Shown: in pieces, positions 119 to 23,579 of the stretch
How the letters are laid out: every line of letters begins with the position of its first letter
Numbering within the stretch: position 1 is the first letter of the stretch
NCBI GenBank assembly: GCA_046318155.1
Contig: JBKCUU010000029.1
Coordinates: forward strand, 1-46,183
Length of the DNA: 46,183 nucleotides
Source of the DNA: Bdellovibrio sp.
GTDB taxonomy: Bacteria; Bdellovibrionota; Bdellovibrionia; Bdellovibrionales; Bdellovibrionaceae
Direction of reading: 5' to 3'
Program-made: the position numbers and the translations under genes
The notes under the pieces: generated by a model
Told to the model about the DNA's origin: nothing
Databases searched by the model: none
The model's input: the letters and a program-made list of their open reading frames with translations, nothing else

Positions 119-194
119 TGGATGGGGTGGGAGGACTCGAACCTCCGAATGGCAGAATCAAAATCTGCAGACTTACCAACTTGTCGACACCCCA
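119..194 (-). tRNA. tRNA-Gln (anticodon UUG), CCA encoded
   Basis: Reverse complement folds as a cloverleaf: acceptor TGGGGTG/CACCCCA, anticodon arm GCAGA-TTTTGAT-TCTGC, T arm GGAGG-TTCGAGT-CCTCC, 3' TCCA. Confidence 0.96.
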
Positions 195-14407: not shown

Positions 14408-16059
14408 CAAAGGCTTGGTTGTTGTTCATTTCAATTTCAGTGGTGAGCGCCGCGGTGCTGTCCTCTCTTCATACCTGGATGAGTGGGTCCGGGATGACGA
14501 TGGGGATCGCGGCCGCCTCGCTTATGCTTGGCGCGCTTTTGTCGGGATGTCTGTCCTTGCGTTCTTGGCAAAGATGGTTTGCCAGTTTTTGGCAACGGGC
14601 CGATCTTTCGAGCCGCGGTCTTTTTTTAGTTGTCATGACGGGCGGTCTTTTTTGTTTTTTGAATTTGTTCTCGTTAGCCAATGGCTCTTTGGGAACTGCG
14701 AACCCAAACAATTTAGGCGATTTGCCGTTTCATTTGCACCTGATCGAATTTTTTAAACGCGGCGCCGAGTTTCCGCCCATGGACCCCACGTTCGCGGGAC
14801 AGCGTCTGCATTATGCTTACGGCCTTGATTTGTGGGATGCGCTTTTAGTCAAGTTGGGTGTGCCCGTGACGGCAAGCCTTTTTCTAACGGGCGCGATTTG
14901 TCTTTTGGTGACTTGGATGGCGCTGTGGCGGCTTGGCGGCATTCTGCTTGTCTGCGCCTTTTTCTTTAGTGGCGGTATGGTGCTCGCTTTTGACTGGAAT
15001 CAGAGCTTAGGACCGAGTTCAACGATGGCCTGGAAAAATTTGTTTTTCGCCGTTTTTTTGACTCAGCGGGGAATGATGTTTGCCCTTCCCGCGGGACTTT
15101 ATTTGATTCGTAAGTGGAACCGCTATTTAAACGAAGATGATTTTAGATTAGGTCTGACGTTTGGTTGGTTCTGGGGCGTGCTGCCGCTGTTTCATTTGCA
15201 CACGTTTGCAGTTTTAAGTCTCTGGATGTTTGTGACGTTCTTGTTTCGCCGGCAGATTCGTTGGCCTTTGATTTTTGGTGCGGCCCTGGCTTTATTTTTT
15301 GTGTTGCGATCGGTGAGCTTTGGCAAAGTCAGCTCTGCCATCGGCTGGGAGCCATTTTGGGTTTTAAAAACACCGCAACTTTGGCTGCTGAGTTTTACGG
15401 CGTGGTTGCTGCTGCCTTTTTGGGTCAGCTGGCGATGGATTCAAAAGCGCAATTGGCGCGACCTTGCGGGTGCATGGGTGATCACTCTCTTTGCTTTGAG
15501 TGTACGACTGGCTCCTTGGGCCTGGGATCAAATCAAGGTGATTCTATGGGTGTACTTGCTGTGGACTTTTTGGACTTACCGTGAATTTCGGTGGAAGGGT
15601 GCTGGGGCTTTGGCGCTGTCGATGCTTTTGTTTTGGCCCGGTGCTCTGCAATGGCTCAGTGGAATGCCCTCTTTTACGGGACGTTTTGATGTTCAAAATT
15701 TGACAGATCGATTGATGGTTGAAAAATTGCTCGACGGTCTTGCTCCCGGCGAAGTTGTCGCAGCGAAAGTGGATCATCAAAATCCTTTGTTAGGTCTTGG
15801 CCAAAGTCTTGTGCTTGGCTATCCCGGTCATGCCTGGTCTCATGGGCTTCCTATCGAATTACAGTCACCCAAGCTGGACGCGATCCTGTCGTCTCGTCCA
15901 GAGGGCAAGCGCTTTGCGCAGGAATTGGGTGTCAAATGGATCGTTTGGAAGGACAATTCCCTTTTGCGGCCGGGGCCGGCAACTGATGGTTGGCAAAGTT
16001 TAGGTTGGTCCGAAGAACGCGTCATCGGCCCTTGGCATCTATGGAGAGTATCACCATGA
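14404..16059 (+). CDS. Polytopic membrane protein, probable GT-C glycosyltransferase
   Basis: GDLPFH...FPP.DP.FAG..L.Y first loop, LPLFH.H, WD..K, GY.GH.WSHG; many TMs. Confidence 0.6.
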   Translation: MTKAWLLFISISVVSAAVLSSLHTWMSGSGMTMGIAAASLMLGALLSGCLSLRSWQRWFASFWQRADLSSRGLFLVVMTGGLFCFLNLFSLANGSLGTANPNNLGDLPFHLHLIEFFKRGAEFPPMDPTFAGQRLHYAYGLDLWDALLVKLGVPVTASLFLTGAICLLVTWMALWRLGGILLVCAFFFSGGMVLAFDWNQSLGPSSTMAWKNLFFAVFLTQRGMMFALPAGLYLIRKWNRYLNEDDFRLGLTFGWFWGVLPLFHLHTFAVLSLWMFVTFLFRRQIRWPLIFGAALALFFVLRSVSFGKVSSAIGWEPFWVLKTPQLWLLSFTAWLLLPFWVSWRWIQKRNWRDLAGAWVITLFALSVRLAPWAWDQIKVILWVYLLWTFWTYREFRWKGAGALALSMLLFWPGALQWLSGMPSFTGRFDVQNLTDRLMVEKLLDGLAPGEVVAAKVDHQNPLLGLGQSLVLGYPGHAWSHGLPIELQSPKLDAILSSRPEGKRFAQELGVKWIVWKDNSLLRPGPATDGWQSLGWSEERVIGPWHLWRVSP

Positions 16060-18326
16060 TTCATATATCAAAAATGCTTTTAGCTCTATTGGCGATTCCA
16101 GTTTTGGTTTCGTCCGCATTTGCTAAGGTGGCAACGGTCTCGTTACCAAGCCCGACAAAAAAAACGACGTCCAAGCTCTCGCAACTCAAGGCCGCTGAAG
16201 ATTTAGAAAAATGGGCTGAGTGTTCACGGTTGGGCTCGCAGGTTTTTGCACAAAAATCGAGCGTCAACGGTTGGGTCTTGACCACGTGGCTTCGCTGTTC
16301 GCGTAAAGCCGAAGCGAAGACGGCAGGAACAGCACTTGCAAAAGCGGCACTCGCCGCTTTTGATACCTCTGCTATGTTACGAACGGGGACCGGTAGTTGG
16401 CAAAAATCTTTGCAGCAAGAAGCGATTAAAGCCCGCCTTCAAGTTCTGGAGCGTGAGGTTCAAAAACCAAATGCCACGACGGGAAATGAAATTACAAAAT
16501 TGCTCGAAAGTTTAACGGTTCCCGAAGATCGCGACGTCAAAGCCAAAGCCCTGGCCTTGTATGGTGACTGGGCCAATGCCATTCGTGATGCCGAGGGCGC
16601 AAAGACCTTTTACGAGCAGTCGCTGGCGCACCGAGAGAGTCGTGCGGTCCGCGACAAATTTGCGGCAGCACTTCTGGCCCTCAATGTTAAAAAAGAAACG
16701 ACGACGACTGCCGCCGTTGAAGAATTTGTCTCTGAAAGCGAGCGTAAATTTGACGAACGGTTTGTGAGCTCTCAAAAAAATAACGATCTGCTCGCACTCG
16801 TTGAAGATTGTGTTTCTTATTTGAATCGGTTTCCGCATGGGCGCTCGGCGAAATGGGCGCACGATAAAGTTTTAGATGTTTATTTTTTGTTTTACGAGCA
16901 GGCCCAAAACGGAGATGAAAAGTGGGTCGCGCTGCGCGACCGAACGCTCCGTGTGATCGAGCGTGCCGAATGGTCGCGTTTAGGTGATTGGTCACGGCTG
17001 TTGCATAAGCGCGGCGATTTTGCGGGCAGCTTGCGCTTGGCCGAGAAGGCTTTAGACAAGACCGGGACAAGTGCTTGGGGCGCTCTTTTGCATTACGTTG
17101 CGGGGCGCTCAGCGCAGTTCTTAGGTGATGACAGGCGCGCACAAAAACATTTTGAAACTTATGCCGAGCAACACTCGTCTGGCGATGACATCGGCGAAGT
17201 TTTGTTTCGATTGGGACTTGTGCACCTGCGCCAAAATCAGGCCCCCAGTGCGGTTGCCATCTTTGAGCGGTTACTTTCACTTAAAGGCCAAGATCGGTAT
17301 GAATTGTCGGCGCGTTACTGGATGATTCGGGCTTTGGAGAGTGTAAAGAGTCCCCGCGCCACAAAAGAATCCGAAGTCTTGATGGCGAAGTTTCCGTTTT
17401 CTTATTTTGGTCTCAAGCTTCGTGCTGAATTTTCTCGGGGACAACTTGAATGGCCCTACCCCTTAGAGACGGCCGAGACTCTTAAAGCCAATTACAAGAT
17501 GACAGGCCCGCAAAAAAAATCCTGGGACCGCCTCAAGACTTTGGCCGCCGCGGGTTGGCGCTCAGAGGCTTTGCAAGAGGCTTCTGAATTCCCGCTGCCT
17601 GAAGATGGGCGCCTAAAAGCATTGCTTGCGCAGAGCTTCACGGACGCGCAGGCCTATCCACTAGTGATTCGTTTGATGAATCAGGCGAGTGATCAGTCGA
17701 TTGATTTTCGAACCAAAGATTTGATGTCACTTGGCTTGCCAAAAGATTTTCAACCGGTGGTTGAGGCTGAAGCCAAGAAATTTAATCTGCAACCGATTTT
17801 GGTTTGGTCGTTGATCCGCCAAGAGAGTGCCTTTAACATCAAAGCGGTGAGCACTTCAAATGCGATGGGTTTGATGCAGCTGATCCCTCCGACCGCGCGC
17901 GAAGTGGCGCAAACCCTTAAAATCGGACCTCTCGAGCTGCCGGATGATGCATTTCAAGTCGACCGCAATATTCCTATGGGGACGAGTTACTTGGCGCAAA
18001 TGATCAGGCAGTTTCAAGGCTCGGTACCATTAGGACTCGCGGCGTACAACGCGGGGCCCACAAGGATGGGGCAGTTCGTAAAAATGCGCGCAGAGCATAA
18101 AGACACAATCTTTAATCCACCGCAGACGGCGATGGATGAGTTGTGGATCGATGAGCTTCCTTGGTTTGAGACGAGCTTTTACGTGAAAGCGATCTTGAGA
18201 AATACGATGATGTATCGACTCCTCGATCAACGTCGAGTTGCTGTCGAAATGAGCGTCTGGAACGACCTCGTCCTCGGTCCCAAAGGAGAGGGCGCAAGTA
18301 CCGGATCTGTGACAACAACGCGCTAG
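16056..18326 (+). CDS. Soluble lytic murein transglycosylase (Slt70-like, TPR plus SLT domain)
   Basis: IRQESAF, GLMQL, AAYNAG, ET..YV motifs; ATG 16056 overlaps the upstream stop (ATGA). Confidence 0.92.
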   Translation: MIHISKMLLALLAIPVLVSSAFAKVATVSLPSPTKKTTSKLSQLKAAEDLEKWAECSRLGSQVFAQKSSVNGWVLTTWLRCSRKAEAKTAGTALAKAALAAFDTSAMLRTGTGSWQKSLQQEAIKARLQVLEREVQKPNATTGNEITKLLESLTVPEDRDVKAKALALYGDWANAIRDAEGAKTFYEQSLAHRESRAVRDKFAAALLALNVKKETTTTAAVEEFVSESERKFDERFVSSQKNNDLLALVEDCVSYLNRFPHGRSAKWAHDKVLDVYFLFYEQAQNGDEKWVALRDRTLRVIERAEWSRLGDWSRLLHKRGDFAGSLRLAEKALDKTGTSAWGALLHYVAGRSAQFLGDDRRAQKHFETYAEQHSSGDDIGEVLFRLGLVHLRQNQAPSAVAIFERLLSLKGQDRYELSARYWMIRALESVKSPRATKESEVLMAKFPFSYFGLKLRAEFSRGQLEWPYPLETAETLKANYKMTGPQKKSWDRLKTLAAAGWRSEALQEASEFPLPEDGRLKALLAQSFTDAQAYPLVIRLMNQASDQSIDFRTKDLMSLGLPKDFQPVVEAEAKKFNLQPILVWSLIRQESAFNIKAVSTSNAMGLMQLIPPTAREVAQTLKIGPLELPDDAFQVDRNIPMGTSYLAQMIRQFQGSVPLGLAAYNAGPTRMGQFVKMRAEHKDTIFNPPQTAMDELWIDELPWFETSFYVKAILRNTMMYRLLDQRRVAVEMSVWNDLVLGPKGEGASTGSVTTTR

Positions 18327-18382: not shown

Positions 18383-20389
18383 ATGAACCAAACAGGACGT
18401 ATTGGCCTTTCGCTTTTTCTTGTGCTTCTGACAAGTTGTGCGCACAAGAGAACGAGCAACGAAACACCGCTTCCTGTTGGCGCCGTGCAGGACGTTGAAT
18501 CCTTCCGGCTCAGCGATCCCGAACCTCCCGCGGTTGTCGATCAGGAGCTTGATAATACCCCCAGTGAGATGAACGCTCTGGTGCAACAATGGGTGAACTA
18601 CTTTCAAGGCCGCGGACGTCCTCATATGGAACGGTACTTGGCGCGCAGTTCGCGCTACAGTGCGCTCATGAAGCGAATCTTAAAGCAAAATGGTTTGCCT
18701 GAGGATTTGATCTACATCGCCTTGATTGAATCTGGTTTTAGTTCGCGGGCCACTTCACGAGCTGCGGCCGTTGGTTACTGGCAGTTCATTAAAGGGACCG
18801 GCAAGCGCTATGGTCTTGAGATCAGTGGTTTGGTCGATGAGCGCCGCGATCCTGTCTTGTCCACTCAAGCGGCGGCCGAGTATTACAAAGGTCTTTACAG
18901 TATGTTTGGTTCTTGGTACCTGGCGATGGCCTCGTACAATGTCGGTGAAAACCGTGTGAAGCGCGAAGTGATGAACCACTACACGCGCGACTTTTGGGAG
19001 CTTGCTCGCAAAAAACGCCTGCCTAAAGAGACAATCAATTACGTTCCTAAGTTTATTGCAGCGAAAATGATTGGTAATAATCCAGCAAAGTTTGGCTTCA
19101 CGGATATTGATTACGAACAACCAATTGAATTCGATACAGTTAAAGTGAGCCATCCCGTGAACTTGCGGCTCATGGCGAGCAAAATCGGTCTGGAGTACGA
19201 AAACTTTAAACAGCTCAATCCGAAGTTCAAAGGCGAAATCGCACCTGCCAAAAGAAATGGTGCACTTGAGCTCCGGATTCCCGTGGGTCAGTCGGAAATT
19301 GCGATGAACGCGGCTCGCGAGTCGGCCGTCGATAAAGTCCAAATGATTGCGGATGCGGGAGATACCCAAACTTACAAAATCAAATCGGGCGATAGCCTTT
19401 ACACGATCGCTCGTAAGTACCGGACGACTGTGGCTTTCTTGCGTGATTCAAATGACTTAAAGCCGGGTCGTAAATTACGCATCGGTCAGCGGATCCAAGT
19501 TCCTGACCGGACGGCTCGTAAAGCTGCAACCAAAGTGGCCGTCGTGAAGCCAATACCTGAAAAAGTAGGGAAACCTTCGGATCAAGAAAAAGCGACGACG
19601 AATCCCGAAGTTGTTCGTGGCGGCGTTGTTTATTACATCGTTCAACCGGGTGATACGCTCTCGGCGATTGCTGATGACTATGATTCATCAATCTCTGAGC
19701 TTCGCAAAATGAACCGTTTGAGTAAAGGCGGCGTTCTTAAAGTTGGAATGCGTTTGAAGGTTCCCAAAGACGATGGACTCCCGCAAGATCCCAATGAGGC
19801 AAAAACAAATGTGGCCGCTCAAACTTCGGGTCCCACCGAGACCGCTTCAGAGTCTGCGACTGCAGAGCCTGAAACAGCGGCAGCAGCCCATGTGGTTCGT
19901 CCCGGTGAAAATCTGACGACGATTGCAAAAAAATACGGTGTGACGATCCAGGCTCTGCGAAAAGCGAACAAACTCAACAACCGATCGATGTTAAAGGTCG
20001 GCGCACGCTTGGTCATTCCATCTGAAATTCAGGACAAGGGGATTGATCCCACTGGTATTGACGGTGGGGCTCGCCGGCCCGCCTCGACAAATCATAAAGT
20101 GACGCTCAAGCGGAGCCCTGCGAAGGTCGCCAAGAGTCCGCTTCGACGACCCAACAAAAAAATGACGAATAGCAGTCCTTCGGTCAACGCGAAGGCCCCG
20201 GCTAAATACGCGGCAAAAAAAAAGTCCAGTAAAGTGCACGTCGTTCGGCCCGGAGAGAACCTCACTTGGATTGCACAAAAATATGGTGTGAGCTTGAATA
20301 CTTTAAAAAAGAAAAACCAGATGAACTCTGGTTCTAAGGTTCTCGTTGGCGCTCGACTTTTGATCCCTACCGCTGACGCCGGCCAGTAA
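18383..20389 (+). CDS. mltD: MltD-like lipoprotein lytic transglycosylase with four LysM domains
   Basis: Lipobox LTSC, IESGF, GYWQF, DERRDP, SYNVG, LPKETINYVPK; four LysM repeats. Confidence 0.9.
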   Translation: MNQTGRIGLSLFLVLLTSCAHKRTSNETPLPVGAVQDVESFRLSDPEPPAVVDQELDNTPSEMNALVQQWVNYFQGRGRPHMERYLARSSRYSALMKRILKQNGLPEDLIYIALIESGFSSRATSRAAAVGYWQFIKGTGKRYGLEISGLVDERRDPVLSTQAAAEYYKGLYSMFGSWYLAMASYNVGENRVKREVMNHYTRDFWELARKKRLPKETINYVPKFIAAKMIGNNPAKFGFTDIDYEQPIEFDTVKVSHPVNLRLMASKIGLEYENFKQLNPKFKGEIAPAKRNGALELRIPVGQSEIAMNAARESAVDKVQMIADAGDTQTYKIKSGDSLYTIARKYRTTVAFLRDSNDLKPGRKLRIGQRIQVPDRTARKAATKVAVVKPIPEKVGKPSDQEKATTNPEVVRGGVVYYIVQPGDTLSAIADDYDSSISELRKMNRLSKGGVLKVGMRLKVPKDDGLPQDPNEAKTNVAAQTSGPTETASESATAEPETAAAAHVVRPGENLTTIAKKYGVTIQALRKANKLNNRSMLKVGARLVIPSEIQDKGIDPTGIDGGARRPASTNHKVTLKRSPAKVAKSPLRRPNKKMTNSSPSVNAKAPAKYAAKKKSSKVHVVRPGENLTWIAQKYGVSLNTLKKKNQMNSGSKVLVGARLLIPTADAGQ

Positions 20390-20430
20390 AAAGAAAGCCC
20401 GTAAATTAAGTTCCTCTTAATTCACGGGCT
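20388..20430 (-). terminator. Intrinsic terminator for a minus-strand transcript convergent with mltD
   Basis: AGCCCGTGAATTAAG-AGGAA-CTTAATTTACGGGCT followed by TTCTTTTT; the single mismatch is a G-U pair only on the minus strand. Confidence 0.85.
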
Positions 20431-20472
20431 AAGGGGAATGAAACCTGTATTTTTGAAATTTGACGTGATCAT
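20422..20472 (-). CDS. Candidate 16-aa peptide MITSNFKNTGFIPLSP downstream of the riboswitch
   Basis: GGAAGGA-5 nt-ATG; the only ORF noticed with an SD between aptamer and terminator. Confidence 0.35.
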   Translation of the reverse strand: MITSNFKNTGFIPLSP

Positions 20473-20548
20473 AACTGTCCTTCCAGTCCGACTAAGTGCC
20501 GCTTACAGCGTCACTCGTGCCTATGCGGTCTGAAGAGTTTAACTCTTA

Positions 20549-20655
20549 TCCCTCTGGCAGTCTGGCTGGCATTCGGAATGTAAAAATCTTGATTCCGAGA
20601 AGCCCCTTTAGCTTTGCGCCCCACGGTTTCCCGAGGTTTGCCTTTGGCAAAGGAA
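20549..20655 (-). promoter_or_regulatory. c-di-GMP-I (GEMM-I) riboswitch aptamer
   Basis: GGCAAACC-TCGG-GAAA-CCGTGG-GGCGCAAAGCTAAAGGG...CAGCCAGACTGCC; P1 UUCCUUUG/CAGAGGGA; G20, A47 and C92 equivalents present. Confidence 0.92.
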
Positions 20656-20772
20656 GGAATCAGCACTCTTAAGTCTTCGCTAGGCCTCCTTCGTCTATCG
20701 GTTAGTTTACTTTGGTTGATGTTAAGACACTTTTTGCTGTGGTTGAAGCTTTCTCGCTTTTAGGACCGCTTC

Positions 20773-20829
20773 CTACTGGTAGGAGGGGTCGGCAAGAACT
20801 CTGACTCTTCCTGCTTTGCTCTTTTTCAC
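20773..20829 (-). CDS. Candidate 18-aa basic peptide MKKSKAGRVRVLADPSYQ
   Basis: AGAAAGGTGG upstream of GTG; stop lies within the TCCTAC/GTAGGA hairpin. Confidence 0.2.
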   Translation of the reverse strand: MKKSKAGRVRVLADPSYQ

Positions 20830-21075
20830 CGAGACCACCTTTCTGACGTGGAATCAGAATACCTCGACCAAGGACCGGGCGAAACTAAAAGGCGCCGCTC
20901 GTCTCAAATCAAATCGTTTTCCGTTTCAAAATCAGAGAAGATAAATGCCAAGGAACCTTGCCGTGTCTCAAAATTTTTACTCAAAACTTAGGGTCTTCAG
21001 CGACCTCTAGGGACTCGTTCGGTATGAAAGCACAGAAGCTTTTTCCTTAAAAGCAATTGCGATAAAAATTTCAGC

Positions 21076-23058
21076 TTAAAAACCCAATCTTTTCTTAAGT
21101 TCTTCGGCGGCTTTTTTGGCTTCGTTTTCGATGCCTTTTTTAGCTTTGTTTTCTTCGTCTTTTTTGGCCACGTTCATTTTGCCTTCAGCTTCTTTCTTTT
21201 TGGAGTCGAGCTGGGATTGGAGCTTTTTAATTTCGCCGTCGACTTGGCCTTTTACTTTATTAAAATTGCCCTCGAGCTTGGCCTTTTCTTTGCCCACTTG
21301 CTCGTTGATAAAGTTTTGAACTTTGAGTTTGGCTTCGTCAATTTTGGCTTTGACGGCATTTTCAAAACCGCGCTGCAGTTCGGGTCCCAAGTTTGAATTG
21401 ATGGCAAGCCCCAGGCCCGGCAAGCGGCCTTCACCTTGAACATCGATGGTGAGAACGGGGAGTGACTTAAAGACATTTTTGAGAATGCTATCGACGATCT
21501 CATTTTTTGCCTGAATTTGGTAATCCACTTGCTTCAAGTCGTTATTCAGCGTGAATTCAAAATCTCGCAAGCCCACCAATTGACCTTTGGACTGGATCGA
21601 GGCTTGTGCTTTTTCGAAGGCGATGGTCACGTCTGCCGATTGCACAATTGAGCGCCCAACGATGGGGTAGTCGGCCACATTCATGTCGTAAGAAATTTTG
21701 CTGTCGGCTTTGAGGTTGTCGAAAGTTCCTTTGAACTCAAAACCTTGGATCGACATCGTTGGAAAATCACCCTTGAGGCTTGCGGTCGTGGGTTTGCCAA
21801 TCAGGACTTGATTCGACGTCACGTCGGTGATGAGACCTGCAAGGTTACCTGTACCAAGTGTGGGACTGGCTTTTGAACTGATGCTGATTTTACGAACCCA
21901 AAAAATCGGGTACGATTTCGGCTTTCCAAATTCGTAGGTGGTCCCATCGGCGCGAGGGCGGGGCTGCATCTGAATATCGACTTCGTCGGGTTTGCCTTTT
22001 TTCATTAAATTGGGAGGCATGTATTTTTCGGCCATGCCTCGGTACTGACTCAAGCGCTGCAAGGAAGGATCGATGTAAGGGCGAAACAAAGACTGCGCTA
22101 AATTTTTAGCATCGAGCTTGGGAATTTTAAAACGATTCTCAAGCTCAGCGATGTCTTTTTGGACAAGGGCATCAAGTTCGTTGAGGCCTTGTTCGAACTG
22201 TTTAAGATCCGTGTTGATCGTGCTGCCGGTCTCAGCTAAATTTTTGTACTTTTGATCCGCTTCTTCGGCCACGGCTTTGAGTTGGTTGACGGATTCGACC
22301 AGTTCTTGGGGAGATTTGAAATTGCTGGTTTTGATTTTTTTGACTTTCTCGCCGAGGGCATCAATCTCTTTGGGCTTAGGCAGGGCCGCGATTTTTTGCT
22401 GCCACACTTTTGATTTTTCGTTGTAAGCCTGAGTGAGTTCATTCAAACGTTTTTTTGAAGTCAGAGTTCCTTCGATTTTAGCCAGTTGGTCGTCACCCGA
22501 GGCGCCGCCCAAAAGACCAGCGAGATCTCCGAGGACGTTGTCATTGTATTTGGCTTCGGTTTGATCAAGCGCGCGGTCCTTGAGTTTATTTGCTTCTTTT
22601 TCGAGTTTGCTGGGGCCTTTGTCTCCGGGCTTGATGGGCACTGGGGGCTTGACGCGGCCCGGAGATTTGCGAGGCACGTCGATTTGGATTTGCTCAACCG
22701 CCATCTCATCCACGACGAAGCGGGCGCGCAAAAGGCCGTCCCACAAAACATCAAAGCGAATGTCACCAATCGCGACCATGTTGCTGGTGGGCTTTTGCGC
22801 ATTGGTGATCTGCAGACCCTGCAGGCGAAAGCTACCCTTCCAGAAGCTGGTCTCGAGGCTAGCGATGTCAACTTGCGCGCCAATGACCTGGTAGCCTAAG
22901 TACTCGAGTGCACTTTTTAAATTGCGATCAAATAAGAAGTGAAAATAACCCCAAGTCAAAACGATCACGATCAAAAGAGGAACCGCAGCTTCGGTTCGGA
23001 TCGGGCCTTTTTTCTTGGGCTTTTTTACGCTTGGGGGAGTTTGATGGGGAGTTGTCAT
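21076..23058 (-). CDS. TIGR03545 family protein
   Basis: GPIR..A N-terminus with TM, AsmA-like N-terminal segment, coiled coils; coupled (ATGA) to a TIGR03546-like gene. Confidence 0.82.
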   Translation of the reverse strand: MTTPHQTPPSVKKPKKKGPIRTEAAVPLLIVIVLTWGYFHFLFDRNLKSALEYLGYQVIGAQVDIASLETSFWKGSFRLQGLQITNAQKPTSNMVAIGDIRFDVLWDGLLRARFVVDEMAVEQIQIDVPRKSPGRVKPPVPIKPGDKGPSKLEKEANKLKDRALDQTEAKYNDNVLGDLAGLLGGASGDDQLAKIEGTLTSKKRLNELTQAYNEKSKVWQQKIAALPKPKEIDALGEKVKKIKTSNFKSPQELVESVNQLKAVAEEADQKYKNLAETGSTINTDLKQFEQGLNELDALVQKDIAELENRFKIPKLDAKNLAQSLFRPYIDPSLQRLSQYRGMAEKYMPPNLMKKGKPDEVDIQMQPRPRADGTTYEFGKPKSYPIFWVRKISISSKASPTLGTGNLAGLITDVTSNQVLIGKPTTASLKGDFPTMSIQGFEFKGTFDNLKADSKISYDMNVADYPIVGRSIVQSADVTIAFEKAQASIQSKGQLVGLRDFEFTLNNDLKQVDYQIQAKNEIVDSILKNVFKSLPVLTIDVQGEGRLPGLGLAINSNLGPELQRGFENAVKAKIDEAKLKVQNFINEQVGKEKAKLEGNFNKVKGQVDGEIKKLQSQLDSKKKEAEGKMNVAKKDEENKAKKGIENEAKKAAEELKKRLGF

Positions 23059-23579
23059 CCGTAGAGCTCCTGATATTTCGTGTACCATTTGTAAAGCGAA
23101 GTGGCCGTAAACGCCTTCCAGAATTTGGTGTTCTTGTAACGGGCGACGACGGTGGCTCGGTACTGCACGATCAATTTTTTAAAGATAAAAAAAGCCGGTA
23201 TGGCGAGCAAGAATCCCAGCAAGCCACTTCCCATGACAACCGAGTTGTTAAAGCGCGTGAGCGGGACGATCGGCATATTGTAGAGTTCGACAAAAGCGGG
23301 GCGAAGGGCTTCGCTTTCAAGAACGATGCGGCCCAGAGCGTCCGTCACGGGGTCGAGTAAAAAGGCGACAAACTTAAAGAAGAAGGCCGAGAGAAAAGCG
23401 GCCCCCATTTGGACTCGTAAAAAAATGCAAATCGTCAGCACCAAAAAAGTTTGCAGCGATAAGAACGGTGAGAAACCAAGAACTAATCCCAGGGCTAAGC
23501 CCCAGGCGAGTTGGTTGGTGCCCGTTTCGCTGTTGAGCATGCGAAAGAAAGCAAAAATTTGCTTGAGTAGCAGGGTCAT
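23055..23579 (-). CDS. TIGR03546 family membrane protein
   Basis: LNSET..NQLA.G..LG...GF.P and LYN.P.VP.TRFNN.VVMGS. Confidence 0.88.
   Translation of the reverse strand: MTLLLKQIFAFFRMLNSETGTNQLAWGLALGLVLGFSPFLSLQTFLVLTICIFLRVQMGAAFLSAFFFKFVAFLLDPVTDALGRIVLESEALRPAFVELYNMPIVPLTRFNNSVVMGSGLLGFLLAIPAFFIFKKLIVQYRATVVARYKNTKFWKAFTATSLYKWYTKYQELYG

Follow-up and report, generated by a model that had tools for sequence, protein, structure and literature searches.

We analyzed a 46,183-nucleotide (nt) window, the whole of contig JBKCUU010000029.1 of a Bdellovibrio sp. assembly (GCA_046318155.1), for a minus-strand RNA locus that carries an aptamer for cyclic di-GMP (c-di-GMP) and resembles merRNA, the stand-alone riboswitch RNA of B. 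bacteriovorus. The contig is part of a metagenome-assembled genome of the Bdellovibrionaceae that comprises 2.75 Mb in 130 contigs. The following features make up the locus, where G101 denotes the genome whose coordinates fit the published merRNA:

20388-20849, minus strand: whole merRNA-type transcript as suggested by RNA contigs and by homology to the 445-nt merRNA on G101
20652-20553, minus strand: c-di-GMP-I (GEMM-I) aptamer, Rfam RF01051
20388-20430, minus strand: intrinsic terminator from a hairpin scan, stem-loop 20430-20396 and U-tract 20395-20388
20856-20909, minus strand: putative promoter-like block
18383-20389, plus strand: MltD-like gene encoding an SLT domain and four LysM domains, convergent with the RNA

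The first-pass annotation had read a complete GEMM-I aptamer on the minus strand, and a covariance-model search with RF01051 bore this out. The match spans the full model (1-87) with 56.4 bits (gathering score 35; E 1.7e-8) and is the only one in the genome. It retains the conserved letters of the model, GGC...GCAAAG...GCC, and its inner helices covary strongly in the alignment that the folding tool made of 50 diverse relatives. Because the variant model c-di-GMP-I-GGC scored only 49.8 bits, under its cut-off of 59, the aptamer is considered to be of the canonical type, and a looser Rfam search of 20350-20950 added nothing but sub-threshold matches. The ligand is predicted from the conserved letters alone to be c-di-GMP rather than cyclic GMP-AMP (cGAMP), with G20 and C92 taken as the residues that mark this specificity. 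B. bacteriovorus also produces cGAMP (PMC9140294).

The terminator starts 122 nt after the aptamer and is formed by a hairpin with 15 base pairs, including one G-U, followed by UUCUUUUU. It was reported by the scan on the minus strand only, in agreement with the earlier proposal of a minus-strand terminator with a G-U pair about 120 nt past the aptamer. The next gene is indeed convergent, and its end coincides with that of the U-tract, which its stop codon touches. The RNA strand was also described as having no long open reading frame (ORF). This is correct insofar as no ORF of at least 60 amino acids is present, the longest being a 51-amino-acid GTG frame across the aptamer, but the short conserved frames described below had been overlooked. 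The conventional downstream gene in cis that characterizes c-di-GMP-I riboswitches was not found; no co-directional gene follows, and only a 16-codon frame precedes the terminator.

The merRNA of B. bacteriovorus HD100 has been mapped to 1,073,741-1,074,185 on the minus strand with a length of 445 nt (Karunker et al. 2013, PMC3627812). According to the consulted text of the same paper, its reads in attack-phase RNA sequencing about equal those of all protein-coding genes together, it is not flagged as FliA-dependent, and neither a conserved ORF nor conservation outside Bdellovibrio is reported. The single aptamer of G101 (1,073,868-1,073,951, minus strand) lies within these coordinates, the published 5' end being located 234 nt before it and the 3' end falling within the U-tract, 127 nt past it. 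For comparison with relatives, 90 loci were oriented and reduced to 88 distinct sequences and to a non-redundant set of 68 below 90% identity; the relatives in the resulting counts are not independent of each other, and some of the motif pairings rest on invariant letters. Alignment of the window with the G101 locus revealed common blocks on both sides of the aptamer (AAGGAGG, UCCUUCC, GGAAGG and a 17-mer) as well as a shared terminator position and the promoter element TAT(C/T)CT. Homologous flanks, single-copy occurrence throughout the family and RNA contigs of merRNA length in four studies all support the previously suggested merRNA-like stand-alone RNA, and judging from these features the locus is very probably a merRNA orthologue.

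RNA of merRNA-like length is present in metatranscriptomes. In 13 RNA runs from nine studies, 0.60-0.71 of the sampled words of 20330-20900 were recovered, compared to 0.73 expected for an RNA spanning 20422-20840 and 1.00 in two DNA runs. Contigs from four RNA runs of four freshwater metatranscriptome studies were compared with 20100-21200, and each run yielded one stand-alone contig without loose ends and with 0 differences to the window: two of 413 nt (20428-20840 and 20422-20834), one of 408 nt (20428-20835) and one of 386 nt (20444-20829). Their ends agree within 12-22 nt at both sides, a concordance across studies that is a weak hint of transcript ends; contigs may break at hairpins and show neither strand, exact ends nor expression level. 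The assignment to the minus strand follows from the aptamer and the terminator. No RNA contig covered the parts of the two neighbouring genes contained in 20100-21200, and this was not counted as evidence. In run X12 (record 2), a 192-nt RNA contig matches the aptamer core only (20599-20644); its loose ends resemble the merRNA flank of the genus Bdellovibrio and therefore point to a second merRNA type in the same metatranscriptome.

Contigs and homology together place the 5' end at about 20840-20849, at most 16 nt after TATTCT, and the 3' end in the U-tract, which would give a transcript of about 450 nt. This replaces the first-pass transcript of 20720-20388, since the contigs extend to 20829-20840. 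The sigma28-like -10 box that had been assigned to it, ACCGATAG, does stand at 20702-20695, yet the RNA contigs pass through it and it is absent from L009, a relative of the same genus, as well as from the G101 copy; it is therefore not regarded as the main promoter. The putative promoter block upstream contains ATTTGAGAC (20909-20901), a poor -35-like TTTCGC (20884-20879), a 17-nt spacer and the -10-like TATTCT (20861-20856). Under a strict pattern, 19 of the 68 non-redundant relatives have GGTCGAG.TAT(T/C)CT with TTTGAGA ahead of it, and most of these also have TTGAAA 18 nt before TAT(C/T)CT; in G101 the block is located 17 nt before the published merRNA 5' end. A consensus promoter scan found no sigma-70 site on the RNA strand of the window. 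In plasmids for B. bacteriovorus, the merRNA promoter (P_merRNA) serves as the strongest native promoter (bioRxiv 10.1101/2025.05.17.654431).

The aptamer was detected in all 24 sampled genomes of the same family and in seven of 16 genomes from other families of the order (two of two each in families f2, f4 and f5, one of one in f12 and none in the nine others). In a larger sample of 150 other family genomes, 143 carried it, representing 40 of 41 genera and almost always with one aptamer per genome; the seven family genomes without a match are 54-97% complete. More than one aptamer was present in a few relatives, with two in G019, three in G134 and two in G024. In the latter, both aptamers (G024:C7, 80212-80315 and 81681-81778) are encoded on the same strand about 1.4 kb apart.

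Outside the aptamer, the most widely shared words among the 68 sequences were AGGAGG (67), TTCCCC (58) and GGAAGG (54). They belong to a set of flanking elements that is arranged in the window as follows:

20691-20685, minus strand: M1, AAGGAGG, a perfect Shine-Dalgarno-like box with no start codon behind it
20658-20652, minus strand: M2, UCCUUCC, just 5' of the aptamer, 5' strand of the predicted helix P0
20653-20648, minus strand: 5' strand of P1, formed by the last CC of M2 and UUUG
20494-20547, minus strand: linker with two hairpins (20547-20533 and 20516-20494) read from the sequence
20484-20478, minus strand: M3, GGAAGGA, predicted 3' strand of P0 and Shine-Dalgarno sequence of the 3' micro-ORF
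20445-20429, minus strand: M4, GGUUUCAUUCCCCUUAG, a near-invariant 17-mer ending at the terminator foot
20472-20422, minus strand: candidate 3' micro-ORF with ATG at 20472-20470, 16 codons (MITSNFKNTGFIPLSP) and TGA at 20424-20422
20829-20773, minus strand: candidate 5' micro-ORF with GTG start, 18 codons (VKKSKAGRVRVLADPSYQ, then stop) and AGGUGG 5 nt upstream

P0, the pairing of M2 with M3, was predicted by RNAalifold twice, once from the 68-sequence alignment and once from the tool's own alignment of the 50 diverse sequences. It adjoins P1, the closing helix of the aptamer, in which CCUUUG pairs with CAAAGG (CAGAGG in the window). P1 was paired in 97.8% of cells, compared to 26-69% when slid. 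For P0 and P1 together, 91.1% of cells were paired (28-78% when slid), while shuffles gave 89.7 +/- 0.4 with two of 500 as high. Three pairs with six cells changed on both sides (four of 500 shuffles), for example from C-G to A-U or U-A at one position, and the covariation score was 0.157 versus 0.132 (two of 500 shuffles). In L009, the second linker hairpin differs in its letters but keeps its pairing. A further possible helix joins M1 to M2 plus the first U's of P1 (paired in 93% of cells, compared to 58-83% in slid controls), and in the window the duplex of AAGGAGG with UCCUUCCU has a calculated energy of -11.8 kcal/mol compared to -11.7 for P0. By these models, the M1 pairing would be a competitor of P1 and P0. 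States with one or the other helix forced lie 3-8 kcal/mol apart in the four RNAs that were folded, and these energies do not decide between them; P0 is part of the unconstrained minimum-energy fold in two of the four.

The 17-mer, searched as TTTCATTCCCCT with up to two mismatches, was present in 57 of the 68 relatives and showed no synonymous variation in its TTT and TCC codons. It is almost invariant in more than 40 genera, wobble positions included, and resembles a pyrimidine-rich anti-Shine-Dalgarno-like tract. Several partners for it were considered. Pairing of M3 with M4 (GGAAGGAA with UUCAUUCC) was rejected, with 76% of cells paired versus 78% when slid by -1 and a conserved G-A mismatch. 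Pairing of M1 with M4 (AGGAGG with CCCCU, proposed by RNAalifold from the 68 sequences) was also discarded as uninformative, its letters being invariant and a shift by +1 giving an equally good result. On average, the 17-mer formed its most stable duplex with the aptamer strand GCUANAGGGG, which was the top site in 26 of 57 RNAs; the mean energy was -11.9 kcal/mol, compared to -7.5 for the two other sites named and a median of -5.2 for the background. The correlated changes of this pairing are ambiguous, and it would cover only 2-4 nt of the terminator stem; it is retained as a candidate.

The RNA between M3 and the terminator contains a short frame in most relatives. In 59 of the 68 RNAs, an ATG is located either inside AUGGAAGG (38 RNAs), where GAGGUG of the linker hairpin provides the Shine-Dalgarno sequence, or 3-11 nt after GGAAGGA (21 RNAs, the window included), which then takes this role. 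Among the 57 RNAs with the 17-mer, the ATG frame reads ...(D/E/K)(W/R/K)F(H/Y)SP-stop in 47, while the other two frames account for 13 and 9; with one RNA per genus, the usual frame was found in 25 of 30 versus 7 and 6. The spacing between AUGGAAGG and the 17-mer is divisible by three in 30 RNAs, versus 8 and 11 for the alternatives. Frame lengths range from seven codons (MERFYSP, MDWFHSP) to 37, and where the first ATG is lost another one stands at Shine-Dalgarno distance. The stop codon begins 1-6 nt before the terminator stem in 35 of the 57 RNAs; in 7 others it begins within the 5' arm or the loop, in 6 within the 3' arm and in 9 past the stem, some of these 9 being misplaced hairpins. The best M2 site in the 3' region overlaps an ATG in 40 of 68 RNAs and lies at most 12 nt before one in 26. 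The frame preference and the replacement ATGs lend comparative support to the short-peptide mRNA that had been offered earlier as an option, and the 3' micro-ORF is regarded as a candidate coding frame. In other families (L002 and L008 of f2, L024 and L026 of f5), the 17-mer is missing, but a short frame with a strong Shine-Dalgarno sequence is still present behind the aptamer, extending beyond the terminator hairpin in f2 (MDITPIFRPP...) and stopping within its loop in f5 (MDTSFPG...).

A second frame was apparent in the 5' domain. An ATG frame of 14 codons, preceded by a strong Shine-Dalgarno sequence, occupies the position of the GTG frame in 16 non-redundant relatives, about 140-180 nt before the aptamer (L013, L022, L131 and other loci), and encodes M.xRI(H/F/Y)DH(H/R)D(E/K)xPK. 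Its third codon positions vary most, with an entropy of 1.08 versus 0.84 and 0.77. The window and L009 have no ATG in this region; the GTG frame of the window is conserved in L009 (VKSKRAGHARVLADPTYQ, then stop) and makes a weak candidate. The available portions of the literature on merRNA and Bdellovibrio c-di-GMP riboswitches yielded no description of micro-ORFs or of P0.

Taken as a whole, the comparative pattern suggests that the locus is a merRNA orthologue that probably works as a riboswitch-gated micro-mRNA and not only as a passive c-di-GMP store. For the gating mechanism by itself, we consider the chances to be even or slightly better. In this mechanism, P1 (CCUUUG with CAGAGG) would continue into P0, in which UCCUUCC pairs with GGAAGGA, and P0 would bury the ribosome-binding site of the 3' micro-ORF, whose frame ends at the terminator stem. 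With c-di-GMP bound, P1 and P0 would be closed, the micro-ORF would be silent and the compact terminated RNA would persist. Without ligand, AAGGAGG would pair with UCCUUCCU instead and the start site would be freed. Ribosomes could then reach the foot of the 3' hairpin and disturb it, affecting RNA stability or termination, and a short peptide would be made. Bulk binding of c-di-GMP, the published store idea, is compatible with gating and may act as well.

A more far-reaching version, which appears possible but rather doubtful, is that merRNA is a c-di-GMP-gated micro-mRNA with two tiny frames, in which the ligand closes a helix over the 3' start and, once this helix is open, ribosomes run to the proline-stop codon at the 3' hairpin and thereby decide RNA lifetime or termination. 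If so, the lifetime or termination of an RNA among the most abundant of the attack phase would also set the release of bound c-di-GMP, ribosome loading would perhaps be affected too, and the 17-mer would be a hub where coding, pairing and terminator functions overlap.

Several observations weigh against the gating interpretation. The covariation of P0 and P1 is modest and the letters are mostly invariant. When P0 and P1 are slid by +1, only 77.8% of cells are paired but the covariation score is equal (0.158 versus 0.157), which leaves conserved complementarity as the main support, together with a few compensatory changes. In the window, the P0-forced state is 3 kcal/mol less stable than the competitor and 11 above the minimum-energy fold. 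The single-sequence fold of the 453-nt RNA has a z-score of -1.84 with three of 100 shuffles folding as well, and this fold was set aside as it did not reproduce the aptamer. For the 17-mer, none of the partners tried (M1, M3 and the aptamer strand) could be proven. Moreover, the 3' frame of the window is shifted by one base relative to that of the family and terminates 6 nt into the stem, and thus no conserved peptide would be made here. This shift is not an assembly error, because the four RNA contigs match the letters of the window without differences; L009 of the same genus keeps the usual frame (MNSFFSEKYRFHSP), while another 10 of the 57 relatives also lack it. Synonymous changes are missing from the last four codons, and W and R replace each other; the 17-mer is therefore under constraint at the RNA level regardless of the peptide, and the preferred frame might do no more than make ribosomes stop ahead of the hairpin. 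Finally, the direction of the switch (OFF with ligand), translation, ligand binding and the strand are all inferred from sequence.

Among the alternatives, a purely non-coding store or sponge for c-di-GMP that is released on degradation, with the short frames being accidental (Karunker et al. 2013), is considered unlikely for this locus. The proposal was derived from the very strong expression of merRNA during the attack phase of B. bacteriovorus (PMC3627812), and the conservation of the 17-mer and GGAAGG as nucleotides down to the wobble positions fits it, as does the deviating frame of the window; a later account calls the store 'never directly tested' (bioRxiv 10.1101/617340). An accidental origin of the frames is difficult to reconcile with a frame preference of 47 versus 13 and 9 that holds across many frame lengths, with replacement ATGs at Shine-Dalgarno distance and with a second, 5' frame whose variation is coding-like, and a sponge requires no conserved flanks, P0 or AAGGAGG box.

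Quite improbable is a ribosome-mediated attenuator, in which the riboswitch would set whether the micro-ORF is translated while transcription proceeds, and a ribosome at its stop would block the terminator and allow read-through into the MltD-like antisense or other downstream DNA. The position of the stop codon, which abuts or enters the terminator stem in most relatives, would suit this model, as would frames in other families of the order that pass the hairpin (G025, G037) or end in its loop (G028, G040). A convergent MltD-like gene follows the RNA in 32 of the 90 loci, covering many genera. However, no MltD-like match was found within 320 nt after the G101 copy, the downstream content is not conserved across the 90 loci, and co-directional genes behind the RNA occur in a few genomes only. 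In addition, none of the four RNA contigs passes the terminator (contigs may break at hairpins), and the published RNA is a discrete 445-nt species (PMC3627812).

To a similar degree, we doubt that the peptides are the real product and merRNA chiefly an abundant mRNA for one or two functional tiny peptides. The C-terminal (D/E)(W/R)F(H/Y)SP is conserved in most genera, the 5' frame shows synonymous variation, and class-I c-di-GMP riboswitches of C. difficile control small-protein genes (PMC13724677). On the other hand, the window and the 10 relatives mentioned above do without the usual 3' peptide, the W/R alternation and missing synonymous change indicate selection at the RNA level in the 3' frame, and frames of seven residues are very short for a stable product.

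A sponge for CsrA (Rsm), whose GGA/AGGA motifs would be exposed differently depending on c-di-GMP, is highly improbable: csrA is encoded in the genome, the RNAs average about 9.4 GGA outside the aptamer where base composition predicts 5.5, the trinucleotide with the strongest enrichment is AGG (1.45 times) and the terminator loop carries GGA in 28 of 66 relatives including the window, but GGA reaches only 1.22 times the dinucleotide expectation, the terminator-loop GGA is absent from the genus of G101, the best-conserved GGA boxes are predicted to be base-paired rather than looped, and fliW lies about 250 bp downstream of csrA. GGA/AGGA is the consensus motif of the translational regulator CsrA, and FliW is the protein antagonist of CsrA. 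The two genes (G000:C50, 28053-28208 and 28463-28822) are on the same strand in an arrangement familiar from flagellated Gram-positives.

The window contains the following further features:

21076-23088, minus strand: ORF of 670 amino acids upstream of the RNA, without a Pfam family
122-194, minus strand: transfer RNA gene, Rfam tRNA, 56.2 bits

The upstream ORF was matched only in L009 among the 90 loci. The nearest relative of the MltD-like protein is 78% identical, and its relatives come from metagenome-assembled genomes labelled Bdellovibrionaceae, Bdellovibrio sp. or Pseudobdellovibrionaceae. With this protein as anchor, an aptamer was located within 1.5 kb at just 8 of 80 loci; many of the matches are other SLT proteins. 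The gene is the second of two tandem lytic-transglycosylase genes on the plus strand, the first of which (15990-18326) encodes TPR and SLT domains.

The distribution described above indicates that merRNA is not a peculiarity of one species but a single-copy gene found throughout the family, and several freshwater metatranscriptome studies contain it as a discrete RNA. Both the absence of a conserved ORF and the lack of conservation outside Bdellovibrio, as stated in the consulted text of PMC3627812, are revised by these results. For the window, the corrected annotation is an RNA gene of about 450 nt (about 20849-20388, minus strand) instead of a 330-nt unit with a sigma28 promoter. The architecture conserved in about 90 relatives, with its competitor box, P0, micro-ORFs and the 17-mer at the terminator foot, provides testable ideas about the function of merRNA, so far a matter of conjecture. 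The individual elements have counterparts in several known systems.

RNAs of the CsrB/RsmZ type are protein sponges. Like these, merRNA is stand-alone, abundant and rich in GGA-containing boxes, but it is weakly enriched in GGA, most of its boxes are predicted to be paired, and the genome encodes FliW. The leader-peptide attenuators of trp and pyrBI contain a short frame that brings its ribosome to the base of an intrinsic terminator. The short frame of merRNA likewise ends at or in the terminator, while no conserved downstream operon was seen and ribosome entry would be set by the aptamer, not by charged tRNA or uridine triphosphate. With the canonical c-di-GMP-I riboswitches, such as Vc2 of Vibrio cholerae, reportedly described by Sudarsan et al. 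in 2008, the window shares the aptamer class at a score above the Rfam cut-off. It differs from the Vc2 type in the position of the aptamer in the middle of the RNA without a conventional downstream gene, and in a putative expression platform, made up of P0 and the competing AAGGAGG box, that would be divided between the 5' and 3' flanks. Vc2 affects the stability of a small RNA ending in the aptamer (bioRxiv 10.1101/617340). In C. difficile, orphan-looking class-I c-di-GMP riboswitches control very small frames that are repressed by c-di-GMP, and the small proteins belong to one membrane-associated family regulated by premature termination before the gene (PMC13724677). In contrast, the merRNA frames of seven to about 37 codons precede the terminator, and their control would be by masking of the start.

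The closest counterpart is the merRNA of B. bacteriovorus itself. Both are stand-alone RNAs of about 445-450 nt with one c-di-GMP-I aptamer, their own terminator and no co-directional gene, they share homologous blocks on both sides of the aptamer as well as in the promoter region, and they are present in a single copy per genome. The window differs in belonging to another genus of the family, in a 5' domain that is poorly alike and in a linker with two hairpins instead of one. Its 3' micro-ORF uses GGAAGGA as Shine-Dalgarno sequence and is one base out of the usual frame, with the result that the predicted peptide reads MITSNFKNTGFIPLSP compared to MEGTNTYKDWFHSP in the G101 copy. Each defining feature of merRNA that can be compared at the sequence level was found in the window, which by this measure is a member of the merRNA class in another genus.

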